The position numbers and the translations under genes are program-made. The notes below the pieces were generated by a model, which saw only the letters and a list, made by a program, of their open reading frames with translations, did no database searches and had not been told where the DNA came from. 64,000 nucleotides of DNA from Candidatus Poribacteria bacterium. Its GTDB lineage: Bacteria > Poribacteria > WGA-4E > WGA-3G. Positions 2,909 to 50,140 of this stretch are shown here, piece by piece (position 1 is the stretch's first letter; each line of letters starts with the position of its first letter). Location: assembly GCA_965205025.1 (NCBI GenBank), contig CBDBFU010000021.1, positions 1 to 64,000 of the forward strand. Direction: 5' to 3'.

Positions 2909-3172
2909 TAGACTGTCCACGGAACTTGTATTGATAATATTCTTCTGTAAGAGCGATCTCGCGAAAACCATTTCATCATCCCAGTAGAGTGATTACCCAA
3001 TGAATTCATGGGAAGATCTTAATGGAATTCATACTTGGAATGCTTAAATGGTATTCATACCGTTCATTCCTTGATTCCTTTTTTTATAATATTTAAAAAA
3101 TATGAAGAAAATACCCATCACTAACAACTAAAATACAAATATCACAAAAACAGAAAAGCATATTAAAAATAT

Positions 3173-5100: not shown

Positions 5101-5253
5101 ACAGATTCTATATAATTACCGTGAAATATTGGTGCCATGGATTTACTGAAATATACCACACCTACAATGGAATGAGAGAATACATGAAATGAGACAATAA
5201 TTTATAGAAATGGTATAACATAATATTAACAATCTAAAATACTAATTTAAATC

Positions 5254-27893: not shown

Positions 27894-28181
27894 AATTGAT
27901 TCACCAATGTATTTTTAGTCTATTATATATACACAGTGATATGTTTTCAAGATTATTAGGAATACTACCAGATGCATTCAATTTTTCGAATATATTTACT
28001 TTTTGATATCAATATTTAGATAATTTGACTGTTATTACATTATCTGTTACAATAACGAAGATAAATGAATTAGATTTGAATGTTTTCTTACAAGATTACG
28101 ATAAAACCTTTTAATAGAAAAGAGTCGGCAAATGTGTTACAAAGATAGATTTTATTAACGATTGTTAAGGGGAGAAGAAAA

Positions 28182-29344
28182 TTGAAAGAAGAAAATATTG
28201 ATAAGAAAGAGAGTTCATCTGAGGAAATATCACATCCACCAGATAATGTAGCAGAATCTACTATTCAAAATTCAACTTCTCACAACCAATTACTGCACCA
28301 ATCTCTTGACGCCTCGATTCAACAACGTTTAAATGAGTTTAGAAGTCAGTTTGCTGAGGTACAATCAACGTCTACGAATAGACTCTTATTTATAATATGT
28401 ATAGCATTATTACTATTTATAATCCTAATTCCAATAGTAGTAGTATTTACAGGTTATCTTGTATATAACGAGATTGATGATGTTAGGAAATCTGCCCTTG
28501 TATATGTTAAGAATGCTGAACAGGAAGCAATTAAAAGCTGAAACCCAAACGAAGCAAGCTGAAGAATACCTGAAGGAAATCGAAAAATTTCATACACAGT
28601 TAGGTGATATAATCGGTGAATTTACAAGTAAAGATTTCACTAATCCTAATAAGGTTGAAATTATCAATAATTCAATACAGGATATTAAAGAATAATCCAG
28701 TAATTTCACTTGAAGAGAAGTCTATAATAGAAGCCTATAAATTACAGAATGATGGCAATTTAACACAAGCAATTGACAAGTGGAGATCTATAGCGAATAT
28801 TGCAATGGGTGTAAATAGTGAGTTAGTATCACGAGCCTTTTTCTCTATTGGATATCTACATTCACTACAGGATGAAAATGATCAAGCTCTTTCAGCTTAT
28901 GATGAAGCAATAAAGTTAAATCCAAATTTCGTTGATGTGTATTCCAGTCGTGGAATAATTAATCACAGGCTTGGTAATTTCAAAGAATCTTTAATAGATT
29001 TTGATACTGTAATTCGTTTAGAACCGGAGTTAACAGAAGCATACATCAACCGAGGAACAGTGAAAAGATCTATGGGTGAATTTCAGGATGCTATTGAGGA
29101 TTATAATGAGGCAATCCATCTTGATCCAAATTCAGTAAATGCATTAACCCACAGAGGAATAGCAAAAAGCGCATTGAATAAACATCAACAAGCAATTTCG
29201 GATTTTGACGAGGCAATTCGATTAGATTCAAGCTATATAGATGCCTATATCAATCGTGGTTCTGCAAAGAGAGCATTGGGTATGAAAGAAGAAGGAAAAA
29301 AAGATATAGACATTGCTGTTGAATTATCTAAACAACAACTATAA
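28182..29344 (+). pseudogene. Membrane-anchored TPR protein split by two +1 frameshifts
   Basis: TM helix, coiled coil, then TPR repeats (AYINRG..DYNEAIHLDP). Removing one A at 28533-28536 and one at 28687-28689 joins the three ORFs. Confidence 0.8.
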
Positions 29345-29434
29345 TTCATGCTGAGAATTACCGTGAATACCTAAACGGGATTCATGCCATAGATTTGGTT
29401 GATACAAAATTGATTTCTTACTGATTTCAATATA

Positions 29435-29695
29435 ATACCATTTCTAATTGAAAATGTCTCTTTTTTGTACCACAAACTTTATGAGGCTTAAGTTTTTAAA
29501 TTCGGCAATTCCCATTTTCCCAAACTTGGTAGGTTCGGTTTCCTAACCACGGGGAATGCTAAATAGCATTCATACCGTTGAACCGAATTTCTAACACATT
29601 ACCGAATTATTATTTTAATCTTCATTCAGTTTGTGACCTGATAAATGACTACCATAATAACCGCCTAATGAGACAATAATTTATAGAAATGGTAT
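29435..29695. mobile_element. Nested composite repeat (TIR > REP-A > TIR > TIR > REP-B > hairpin)
   Basis: ATACCATTTCTA/TAGAAATGGTAT ends; inner symmetric layers listed in findings. Confidence 0.8.
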
Positions 29696-29770
29696 AACTT
29701 CTATCGATTTTTACGTTTAATTATAAAGAGTTTTTAAGATATTAGTACAAATGATCATTTAAGTTATAGG

Positions 29771-30172
29771 TTAAAGTGGTCTACCAAAACATAACATGTA
29801 CCCATTGTTATCCTTCAATTCAAATGTACGTAAATTATCTTCAGTATCTTCAAGATGTTGGTTGAATTCGACACCACGGGACTGATACTCCTCATATAAT
29901 ACATCAGGATCTGCAACCCAAATAAACGCATCCCACAATGCCCATTCATGTCTGGTATGGTTTGGAATTGGATGGATGTATTCGGTTATTGCTTTGAGTA
30001 ATATTCGAATACTATCTCTACTAATGATTCCAAAAAATGGGTCAGGATCATTTTCTGGAAAAACGAAATCTGTCTTGAAGCCGAGTTTTTCATTATAGAA
30101 CTTTAAGGTTTCAGATAGATTATCTACTATGAAAAATGGTGCGATTTCATTCAGCGTCGTGGTCTTTTCCAT
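29771..30172 (-). CDS. VOC/glyoxalase/bleomycin-resistance family protein
   Basis: FYNEKLGF, RTFELKDNNGYMLCFG. Confidence 0.88.
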   Translation of the reverse strand: MEKTTTLNEIAPFFIVDNLSETLKFYNEKLGFKTDFVFPENDPDPFFGIISRDSIRILLKAITEYIHPIPNHTRHEWALWDAFIWVADPDVLYEEYQSRGVEFNQHLEDTEDNLRTFELKDNNGYMLCFGRPL

Positions 30173-30273
30173 AAGGATACTCCATTAATTCAATTATAGA
30201 AAATGTAACTATTTCATGATTAATACGGTTTCATACCAAACTACAAAATCATATAGAATCATAGGGAAATATC

Positions 30274-31242
30274 ATGTCAATTCTACGCTGGGGAATTCTC
30301 GGATGTGGTAATGTTGCAGAACATAAAGGTGGTCCTCCACTATATACTGTGGATGATTCGGAATTAATTGCTGTGATGAGACGTGACCGTTCTGAAGCAG
30401 AATCCTTTGCAGAAAGGCATGGGGCAAAGAAATATTATACAGATATAGACAAATTACTTTCTGATGATGATATAAATGCAATTTATATAGCGACACCACC
30501 GTATCTGCATTGTAATCAGACAATCCGTGCAGCACAATCTGGAAAACATGTCCTATGTGAAAAACCTATGGCAATGAATGTTGAAGAATGTCAACAGATG
30601 ATAGATGCGTGTGAAAATGCTGGTGTAGCATTAATGGTTGCATATTATCGTAACCATTACCCAAATATAGAAAAGATGAAATACCTGATGGATGATGGTA
30701 GAATTGGTGATGTTGTATTAGCACGAGTAAGTTGTACTTCATACTATAACCCCAACCTTGCAGATTTGAAGAATTGGAGGATAGATCCAAAGATTAGTGG
30801 TGGTGGTGTTCTAATGGATATTGGTAGTCATCGGATTAGTTTATTAGAGTATCTAATGGGTGAAATAGAGACTGTTAGCGGTATTGCTGAAACGGTTAAA
30901 TCGGATTTACCAGTTGATGATTCAGCTATATTTACACTCAGGTTCGTTAATGGTACACATGCTGTGGCTAATATCAACTGGAATGTTGGAGTATCGAACG
31001 ATTCGGTTGAAGTCTTAGGAACAGAAGGAAGTCTAAAATCTACACCGCTAAACTCAGGAAACCTTACTATTCAAAACAAATCAGAAGGTATTGTGGATAT
31101 GTCTCAAGTACCATTACCTTATACACATACTGGTCTTGTTTATGACTTTGTAAACCATTTAAAGACAGGTGAGTCGATTCGTTGCTCAGGAGAATCTGGA
31201 TTAAGAACTAATAAAGTTATCCAAGATATTATGTTATCTTAA
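30274..31242 (+). CDS. Gfo/Idh/MocA family oxidoreductase
   Basis: WGILGCG, IYIATPP, HVLCEKP, GGGVLMDIGSH. Confidence 0.93.
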   Translation: MSILRWGILGCGNVAEHKGGPPLYTVDDSELIAVMRRDRSEAESFAERHGAKKYYTDIDKLLSDDDINAIYIATPPYLHCNQTIRAAQSGKHVLCEKPMAMNVEECQQMIDACENAGVALMVAYYRNHYPNIEKMKYLMDDGRIGDVVLARVSCTSYYNPNLADLKNWRIDPKISGGGVLMDIGSHRISLLEYLMGEIETVSGIAETVKSDLPVDDSAIFTLRFVNGTHAVANINWNVGVSNDSVEVLGTEGSLKSTPLNSGNLTIQNKSEGIVDMSQVPLPYTHTGLVYDFVNHLKTGESIRCSGESGLRTNKVIQDIMLS

Positions 31243-31510
31243 CCCAAGTTGCTACTTAATAGTTTTAAGACATGGAAAACTGTCTTGAATGAAATAATTC
31301 TGGTAGTCAGCCAATATTTGTAGTGTGAACTTCAAGCTTGCATCATAAAGATGCACAAACTGAATGAGGATTAAATAAATATTTCGGTAATTCTAATTTT
31401 CCCAAACCCGGTAGGTGCGGTTTCCTAACCGCACTGGATTTTTCCCCAAAATTACCGATTTAAAAAATTAATCTTCATAAAGTTTGTGCTACAAGTATAA
31501 ACTTGGGTTA
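31240..31510. mobile_element. Nested composite repeat with TAACCCAAGTT/AACTTGGGTTA ends
   Basis: Perfect 11-bp terminal IR; holds the same inner layers as 29435-29695. Confidence 0.8.
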
Positions 31511-50000: not shown

Positions 50001-50022
50001 CGTGAAGACAAACATAAGTCTG

Positions 50023-50140
50023 TTATACCATTTCTATAAATGTCTATCCTATGAAGAGTTATTATGCATGTGATAAAATACTGCACAAACTGGAAGTTTA
50101 TGTTACATTAAAGAGACTATAATTATCAGAAATGGTATAA
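50023..50140. mobile_element. TTATACCATTTCT-family MITE-like element containing REP-A
   Basis: Perfect 13-bp TIR TTATACCATTTCT / AGAAATGGTATAA. Confidence 0.75.

Follow-up and report, generated by a model that had tools for sequence, protein, structure and literature searches.

The DNA analysed here (the window) is a 64,000-nucleotide stretch of a Candidatus Poribacteria genome, C21:1-64000 in an assembly of 5.66 Mb, 33 contigs (prefixed C) and ~38% G+C. Two convergent open reading frames (ORFs), 28616-29344 (plus strand) and 29771-30172 (minus strand), face an intergenic spacer of 426 bp, which contains a nested symmetric repeat. This repeat is a stack of small elements inside one another's hairpins (Table 1). 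One of them, here called B and derived from an IS630-family insertion sequence (IS), belongs to a set of elements that are found mostly at the tips of hairpins of many different sequences, with duplication of a single base.

Folding of 29425-29705 as single-stranded DNA gave -35.3 kcal/mol, compared with -18.5 ± 3.3 kcal/mol for 200 shuffles preserving dinucleotide content (z = -5.1), none of which folded as well. BLAST of 29380-29750 against the genome returned 670 hits at E ≤ 0.1, with starts clustering at 29433/35, 29464/71, 29481, 29501, 29550 and 29598, and ends at 29480, 29548, 29581, 29635 and 29695/97; the sequence is single-copy everywhere outside 29425-29700. The structure is a mosaic of dispersed repeats and not a chance palindrome. 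Its content reduces to three insertion units (A, B and H) and two repetitive extragenic palindrome (REP) modules, REP-A and REP-B. An earlier note on this sequence had described six nested layers. The inverted-repeat pairs that it listed are all present, no more than a few bases from the positions it gave, and the nested symmetry is borne out by the fold; the number of layers is not, as layers 1 and 2 form a single element, A, and layer 4 (TTCGGCAATT / ATTACCGAA) lies in the terminal repeat of B.

Table 1 Features of the nested repeat and related copies in the window (MITE, miniature transposable element with inverted repeats).
Feature	Position	Strand	Basis or remark
Nested symmetric repeat, 265 bases	29433-29697		Stack of small elements inside one another's hairpins
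Element A			MITE, 259 bp filled, ~119 bp empty; TAA duplication on both sides
TAA, left target duplication of A	29433-29435	+	3-nt flanks of paired A copies
A left arm	29436-29480	+	Comparison with empty A copies
A left terminal repeat TACCATTTCTA	29436-29446	+	Within A left arm
GTAC head of REP-A	29467-29470	+	Within A left arm
REP-A 5' stem CACAAACT	29471-29478	+	Within A left arm
REP-A loop bases TT	29479-29480	+	Within A left arm
B, subfamily B1 with H, 145 bp	29481-29625	+	Ends ATGAGGCTTAAG... and ...TTAATCTTCAT
B extended terminal repeat	29481-29509 / 29598-29625	+	Covers TTCGGCAATT / ATTACCGAA
REP-B 5' part	29529-29548	+	Comparison with H-free B copies
GTAG head of REP-B	29529-29532	+	Within REP-B 5' part
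REP-B stem GGTTCGGTT	29532-29540	+	Within REP-B 5' part
REP-B loop TCCT	29541-29544	+	Within REP-B 5' part
AACC, first four bases of REP-B 3' arm	29545-29548	+	Within REP-B 5' part
H, 31-nt hairpin repeat ACGGGGAATGCT-AAAT-AGCATTCATACCGTT	29549-29579	+	Inserted in REP-B 3' arm
Remaining REP-B 3' arm GAACC	29580-29584	+	B copies aligned with and without H
A right arm	29626-29694	+	Empty versus filled A copies
REP-A loop bases TC	29626-29627	+	T at 29626 repeats T at 29480
REP-A 3' stem AGTTTGTG	29628-29635	+	Within A right arm
A right terminal repeat TAGAAATGGTA	29684-29694	+	Within A right arm
TAA, right target duplication of A	29695-29697	+	3-nt flanks of A copies
Second B-type MITE, 115 bp	31364-31478	+	Tip of REP-A-type hairpin GCACAAACT-GA-(B)-AA-AGTTTGTGC
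Degenerate H copy GGAATGCTTAAATGGTATTCATACCGTT...	3036-3075	+	Outside the nested repeat

Copies of A were found by chaining BLAST hits and pairing the two arms of the element. This gave 53 paired copies, of which 27 are empty (~119 bp), 24 carry a 99-148-bp insert and 2 carry larger inserts (936 and 1590 bp). Matching 3-nt flanks are present in 43 of the 53 (TAA 26, TTA 15, TGA 2), a direct duplication outside the inverted repeat. The empty copies follow the pattern T(A/T)A-TACCATTTCTAATTGAAAATGTCTCTTTTTTGTACCACAAACTTTCAGTTTGTGACC...TAGAAATGGTA-T(A/T)A and read ...CACAAACTTTCAGTTTGTG... without interruption, REP-A consisting of a GTAC head followed by CACAAACT-TTC-AGTTTGTG with a 3-nt loop. 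All 24 B-type inserts lie at one position, ...CACAAACTTT-(ATGAGG...CTTCAT)-TCAGTTTGTG..., and the TTC loop of the 27 empty copies reads TT-(B)-TC in the filled ones, a gain of one T in addition to the element itself. Among the inserts, at least five classes are distinguishable (B1, B1 inverted, B2, B2 inverted and B3). The central hairpin of B2 differs from that of B1 by compensated changes, that of B3 is different (GTAGGGGCGGGG...), and both B1 and B2 occur with and without H. Whether a copy is filled or empty, its A part differs from the others by private substitutions only, and the A parts form no clade by insert type. The simplest reading is repeated independent insertion of B into one loop of A.

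When both ends were required within one mismatch, the genome contained 123 B-type elements: 116 non-coding MITEs of 99-181 bp, and 7 full-length IS copies of 1241-1244 bp with one ORF of 384 aa (one copy lies at C12:421736-422976). The encoded protein scores 181.7 bits on the IS630-family model NF033545 (cut-off 100); it also hits Pfam DDE_3 (80.6 bits) and helix-turn-helix domains. The terminal repeats of the IS and of B1 are identical at 24/27 positions on the left and 23/27 on the right, and the IS ends contain AATTCGGTAA / TTACCGAATT, so layer 4 belongs to the terminal repeat of B. These shared ends and the transposase of the full-length copies identify B as a cut-down relative of the 1241-bp IS630-family insertion sequence. 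The earlier note had proposed that a transposase be sought for each set of terminal repeats; such a match was obtained for the B ends, on the 7 IS copies, but not for the ends of A.

The location of the B-type elements was then compared with that of random positions. Flanks that pair perfectly over at least 6 bp, starting no more than 6 nt from the element, enclose 110 of the 123 elements, compared with 1.9% of 5000 random genome positions, so that nesting is far more frequent than chance. Exactly two unpaired bases remain on each side in 89 of these 110. The inner host stems are of 26 kinds, comprising 59 REP-A, about 26 H, 4 REP-B, 3 RAYT-flanking REP (RAYT, REP-associated tyrosine transposase) and otherwise single examples; judged by their flanks, 6 of the 7 full-length IS copies occupy tips of H-type hairpins. 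Outside A, the paired flanks include ATAGGCACGG...CCGTGCCTAT, GAACGCC...GGCGTTC and TTCTGTGTGTA...TACACACAGAA. In an earlier, looser B-type set, the base before B equals the base after it at 87 of 91 sites with this 2+2 geometry, the other 4 reading T/A. Thirteen of the 123 elements have no stem of at least 6 bp; 8 of these have a stem of at most 4 bp, and in most of the 8 the hairpin is truncated or imperfect on one side.

As a replicate, full-length relatives with transposases 68-84% identical were collected from other Poribacteria assemblies (56 loci, 54 with both ends). Hairpin tips are occupied by 52 of the 54, of which 45 show the 2+2 geometry, with equal flanking bases in 44 of 45. The host hairpins in one of these assemblies are mostly GGTAGGCGCGGTT-type REPs. 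Five full-length IS copies in that same assembly (L135, L150, L155, L176 and L177, L denoting loci) have hybrid flanks (TG|CA), with the left half-loop of one orientation and the right half-loop of the other, as expected from inversion by recombination between oppositely inserted IS copies.

The element accepts at least 26 stems and seems to read structure rather than sequence. The IS630-type transposase itself may recognise an extruded hairpin, a cruciform or a two-fold symmetric bendable site. If it attacks both strands symmetrically about the dyad, an odd-numbered loop would give a one-base stagger. The symmetric nesting would follow, since a transposase that integrates at hairpin tips of any sequence places new palindromes on older dyads. 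Literature searches on IS630 in combination with hairpins, stem-loops, palindromes or REPs yielded no description of targeting to hairpin tips; others yielded nothing on MITEs of the phylum Poribacteria, and general reviews only on nested bacterial MITEs.

Comparison of 46 aligned B copies revealed the nature of the innermost hairpin, H. H-free copies read GGTAGGTTCGGTTTCCTAACCGAACC and form a GTAG-led, perfect 9-bp hairpin, GGTAGGTTCGGTT-TCCT-AACCGAACC. Exactly the 31-nt H is missing from 15 of the 46 (113-114 bp versus 143-148 bp), and a few have H at another REP-B site, either following GGTTTCC in the loop or following GGTAGG. H amounts to 31 extra bases between ...CTAACC and GAACC.... The earlier note had this hairpin inserted with duplication of AACC; the H-free form, which reads CTAACCGAACC at the junction, already has AACCGAACC, and the insertion is therefore clean. 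Most B-plus-H copies have GATT where the window copy and the H-free copies have GAAC, so the window copy is closest to the primary insertion product. The relative of H placed near 3038-3065 by the earlier note is indeed a copy of it, though degenerate (Table 1).

Genome-wide, 237 oriented H copies were found, with the consensus CCGGG-GAATGNN-loop-NNCATTC-ATACCGTTGATTC. They lie at TAACC^A of REP-B (51), in the REP-B loop (20), directly after the GTAGG head (13; at C12:35789-35917, one case that was verified, H is followed by the remainder of REP-B), directly behind another H in tandem (44), or elsewhere. A head-to-tail H array with a 27-nt period (CGGGGAATGCTAAATAGCATTCATACC) is present at C2:166615-166780. 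B with H is also lodged at the tips of further H hairpins (C15:82036, C4:7735 and C31:28421), and B sits inside REP-B tips. The nesting graph is therefore cyclic and without fixed order, contrary to the ordered system that the earlier note had suggested. That note had also held that layers which never occur separately would speak for one fixed MITE; the parts occur separately and in other combinations throughout the genome.

The REP modules themselves extend beyond A and B. GTAGGT[TG]CGGTT occurs 245 times, 120 in B-type context and 125 in other repeated contexts. Unfilled REP-A-type hairpins gave 294 hits over both strands (~147 hairpins; heads TGTAG 80, TGTAC 55), of which 94 are bounded by A-type ends on both sides and 172 by none, and a further 59 hairpins are filled by B. 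REP-A thus has the conserved GTAG-type head and more than 100 copies of a REP, and because many hits lie outside A and B contexts, both REP-A and REP-B are modules common to several repeat families. A separate IS of ~1.47 kb, with a 464-aa DDE_Tnp_1 transposase, is present outside the window in 11 near-identical full-length copies (for example C26:41990-43400, C12:181631-183041 and C9:199690-201100). Ten of the 11 abut a GTAGG-led REP at one end, 9 of them REP-B (GTAGGTGCGGTT) and 1 a variant (GTAGGTGCGATT); this IS either targets REP-B or carries one. The C26 copy has REP-B on both sides and lies inside B2, which lies inside A, a four-level nest.

To relate these hairpins to RAYT genes, proteins were scored with the RAYT model NF047646 (cut-off 80 bits) and Pfam Y1_Tnp (cut-off 23). 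A tblastn search with the RAYT proteins of relatives located a RAYT-like gene of 222 aa at C13:281577-282242 (minus strand), with arrays of GTAGCGTAATCTTCCAGATTGCG, GTATCACAATCTTCCAGATTGTG and GTAGCGTAAACTTCCAGTTTGC both upstream and downstream of it. These are not the exact REP-A of A, from which they differ by a few compensated stem changes, and they also host B. In this region (C13:281100-282500) the gene, which is single-copy and divergent and has an N-terminal extension, lies between clusters resembling bacterial interspersed mosaic elements, with at least 12 REPs in three sequence variants. Among related genomes (designated G), where RAYT genes are common and score 121-123 bits, REP-B (GTAGGTTCGGTTTGTAACCGAAC) lies in inverted orientation on both sides of a RAYT gene in G017 (L060; 122.8 bits), and beside RAYT genes in G002, G018 and G012; a RAYT gene flanked by inverted REP-B was found in related genomes only. 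GTAG- or GTAT-led hairpins lie within 650 bases of the locus centre at 20 of 25 RAYT loci of the genus, 18 of the 20 being GTAGG-led. H adjoins one of the 25 (L062), where it is present on a single side, at the end of a contig; the orthologue of this RAYT, 80% identical to it, has different REPs, of the GTAGGAGGGGAT type, around it. A RAYT link for H was rejected on these grounds. The identification of the hairpins as RAYT-type REPs in the earlier note thus fits REP-A and REP-B, which by their sequence contexts are probably members of RAYT-linked REP families (RAYT being an HUH tyrosine transposase), but not H.

Two further observations concern genes of this kind. Many RAYT paralogues in relatives of the genus (L069-L113) each have their own GTAGG-led REP family (GTAGGAGGGGAT, GTAGGAGCGATT, GTAGGAGCGACC, GTAGGCGCGAT, GTAGGCGCGTTT and GTAGGTGCGAT), and these RAYT/REP pairs look like a radiation. 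The Y1_Tnp search of the present genome also found three near-identical genes on C27 (72631-72975, 86996-87340 and 53137-53481; 162 aa), which score 85 bits on an IS200 model versus 32.7 on the RAYT model. They have ~50-nt GTAG-containing tandem arrays (GAGTCCCGTAGGGACGGAATGTCTATAGCA) upstream and inverted downstream, which are not REP-A, REP-B or H; the arrangement is like that of a RAYT gene, although the protein scores as IS200.

The ends of A are widely distributed. With one mismatch allowed, the 11-mer TACCATTTCTA occurs 702 times (350 plus, 352 minus), and forms 138 inverted pairs 100-279 bp apart; these ends are therefore common to several MITE families. Additional A-type ends (TAGAAATGGTA region) lie in the window at 5188-5219 and 50022-50140. 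Tourist-type MITEs belong with PIF/Harbinger and IS5-like elements. A resembles them in its short terminal inverted repeats (TACCATTTCTA / TAGAAATGGTA) and 3-nt TWA duplication, but differs in that no transposase with its ends was found in this genome or among the DDE_Tnp_4 insertion sequences of related genomes. Among A-type end pairs 300-4000 bp apart, with ORFs checked in 15 pairs, none encloses a repeated transposase with A ends, and A-type ends frame none of 22 transposase hits checked (21 of 40 DDE_Tnp_1 hits and one DDE_Tnp_4 hit).

Several candidates for the partner of A were considered and rejected. The only multi-copy ORF between A ends belongs to a different, 916-bp IS630-type IS inserted in an A-like MITE. 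An IS5-like IS (C8:13.6-14.7 kb and C12:335.5-336.6 kb) sits within an A-like MITE, again as a guest; a DDE_Tnp_4 remnant (C14:125414-125539) is not framed by real A ends; and the DDE_Tnp_4 insertion sequences of related genomes terminate in TATTAGACATTATATAA, not TACCATTTCTA. The ~916-bp IS630-type IS is unrelated to the parent of B, has ends TATAGTGAC... and ~11 copies (for example C28:257395-258410 and C15:430743-431658), and contains two ORFs around an A-run, probably with use of a frameshift.

We consider it probable that the locus is a pile of non-coding mobile elements, formed by entry of A into TAA and of B1-plus-H into the loop of A, with hairpin-tip targeting by an IS630-type element. 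In the proposed history, the 119-bp MITE A, with its REP-A, entered TAA and duplicated it, after which the 145-bp MITE B entered the exact centre of the REP-A loop and duplicated the middle loop base; both steps are shown. B arrived with cargo, H having entered the 3' arm of its REP-B earlier and elsewhere, as shown by the pattern across copies; that entry founded the B-plus-H subfamily, which then spread. REPs of families probably tied to RAYT genes supply most of the landing-pad hairpins. Two events are enough at the locus, or one if the composite moved as a unit.

That last case, in which A, B and H amplify together through the ends of A as one composite MITE and inserted here once, is unlikely as a general explanation. 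About 16 near-full-length copies, 84-97% identical and with different flanks, all share the same A/B junction; the 27 empty A copies, the roughly 97 of 123 B-type elements outside family A and the solitary H copies do not fit it, nor do five classes of B in both orientations at the same spot of A, whose A parts form no clade by insert type. It is very unlikely that all layers are REP-type elements moved by RAYT/TnpA-REP HUH nucleases recognising each other's hairpins. The REP-A-like arrays around the RAYT-like gene here, REP-B around RAYT genes in related genomes and the GTAG- or GTAT-led hairpins at 20 of 25 RAYT loci (18 GTAGG-led) speak for such a model. The long terminal inverted repeats and full-length DDE (IS630) parent of B, and the terminal repeats and 3-nt target duplication of A, are however not HUH signatures, and H adjoins a single RAYT locus, whose 80% identical orthologue has a different REP. 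The idea of the earlier note that the elements target each other's hairpins is therefore sustained, far above chance, but with a DDE transposase of the IS630 family as the main agent in place of an HUH nuclease.

Homologous recombination or gene conversion between dispersed copies could also produce such combinations without targeted insertion. Conversion of REP-B might place H at the same junction in several unrelated contexts, as is observed, and the hybrid flanks at 5 IS copies resemble inversions between copies; but this process accounts neither for the placing of B, with duplication of one base, precisely in the middle of 26 unrelated hairpins nor for full-length IS at hairpin tips in other genomes, and we regard it as very doubtful indeed. 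A functional foldback selected for its structure, as a terminator, RNA stabiliser or structured non-coding RNA, has almost negligible probability. The position between the 3' ends of convergent ORFs and the strong fold would suit it. No Rfam family reached threshold, however, the sole match in 28000-31500 lying elsewhere (E = 0.73), the same parts occur in dozens of unrelated places, and the orthologous spacers of two close relatives are without the composite, which is most likely devoid of cellular function.

Several results weigh against the account of stacked insertions. IS630, Tc1 and mariner elements are known for insertion at TA with TA duplication, and this hallmark is absent at B, where only 4 of 91 flanks read T/A; redefining the ends, with the terminal A/T dropped or kept, produced no 2-nt direct repeat. 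No autonomous partner of A was found by end pairing and transposase checks in this genome or among the DDE_Tnp_4 insertion sequences of related genomes. No copy of A without REP-A and no copy of B without a central REP were found; either REP may have entered by insertion or have been part of its MITE from the start. The C13 RAYT-like protein scores 66.7 bits on NF047646, its best model, and 21.2 on Y1_Tnp, both below cut-off, and no REP-B-flanked RAYT was detected by Y1_Tnp profile search and tblastn in this genome (95% complete). A and B may also have reached this locus jointly, as one unit. The spacers of the two closest relatives, G004 (96 bp; flanks 91-92% identical) and G018 (~13 bp; flanks 86-87% identical), lack the composite but do not align to the window flanks, and are too diverged to provide a base-exact empty site. 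Public sequencing runs were also inspected. The joints 29478>29625 and 29548>29580 are present in contigs of several runs, where any other genome copy could supply them, and no contig bridges the repeat in the two runs containing the locus. In run X2, one contig passes from 29338 to 29750 by way of 96 other letters; it has many differences and therefore represents the allele of a relative.

A wider proposal, which we put forward tentatively and as a possibility worth holding, is that a clade of Tc1/mariner/IS630 transposases in Poribacteria switched from TA to DNA shape, inserting with a stagger of one base at the dyad of whatever hairpin or cruciform is extruded. RAYT-made REPs would be its landing pads, and its MITEs, which carry new REPs, would provide fresh pads; the HUH and DDE systems, though unrelated, would in this way feed each other, lengthening the foldbacks of intergenic spacers.

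The parent of B resembles IS630 / Tc1 / mariner elements in its DDE_3 domain with an N-terminal helix-turn-helix, its ~27-nt terminal repeats and its many short non-coding derivatives. Unlike these elements, it enters an A loop (TTC) without TA and adds itself plus one base. Stowaway elements are the plant MITEs of this superfamily. Correia and RUP are named as bacterial MITEs of IS630 / Tc1 / mariner type (PMC2817692, available text).

The small dispersed repeats (SDR) of Nostoc punctiforme, reportedly described by Elhai and colleagues in 2008, are said to be very short hairpin repeats that occur alone, in tandem or inside other repeats. H would be like them in being a short hairpin found in these same three settings, with no known mobilising enzyme. 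It differs in phylum, in sequence, in its length of 31-40 nt and in its conserved 3' tail ATACCGTTGATTC, and about a third of its copies occupy three set positions within a single REP family.

REP-targeting insertion sequences are already known, so the earlier note's candidate for an undescribed system is not new in kind. According to the available text of Tobes and Pareja 2006 (PMC1525189), they include IS1397 and ISKpn1 (IS3), IS621, ISPa11, ISPpu9 and ISPpu10 (IS110), and ISRm22 (IS4); this text covers the IS3, IS110, IS4, IS256 and IS5 families and mentions IS630 0 times. As with the elements described there, B inserts recurrently inside REPs and splits each into two flanking halves. Unlike them, as far as that text goes, B is of IS630 type, uses at least 26 stems and enters the loop centre with a one-base duplication. 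REP/RAYT systems, including REPINs, are likewise established (Nunvar 2010, PMC2817692; Bertels and Rainey 2011, PMC3116915; Di Nocera 2013, PMC3733652), and REPs inside other palindromes are reported in the last of these. The GTAG-led ~25-nt hairpins in more than 100 copies, and a Y1/HUH gene with the same hairpin inverted or in arrays, agree with the available portions of these papers. In contrast to the systems described in those portions, the REPs here lie at the centre of MITEs with terminal repeats and serve as pads for a DDE transposon. The unusual feature is the target choice of the IS630-type element.

Tc1, mariner and IS630 elements are textbook TA integrators, in wide use as genetic tools. 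A clade that inserts at hairpin tips with a one-base duplication would, if the proposal is true, mean that target choice in this superfamily can move from the sequence of a site to its structure. A direct test of the property is feasible, with a 384-aa transposase, defined ends, 123 natural sites in this genome and 54 full-length copies elsewhere. For annotation, the stretch is to be read as selfish DNA, neither a gene nor a regulatory RNA. The hairpin-tip rule explains the long foldbacks that fill Poribacteria spacers, and provides a worked case of REP/RAYT elements interacting with DDE transposons.

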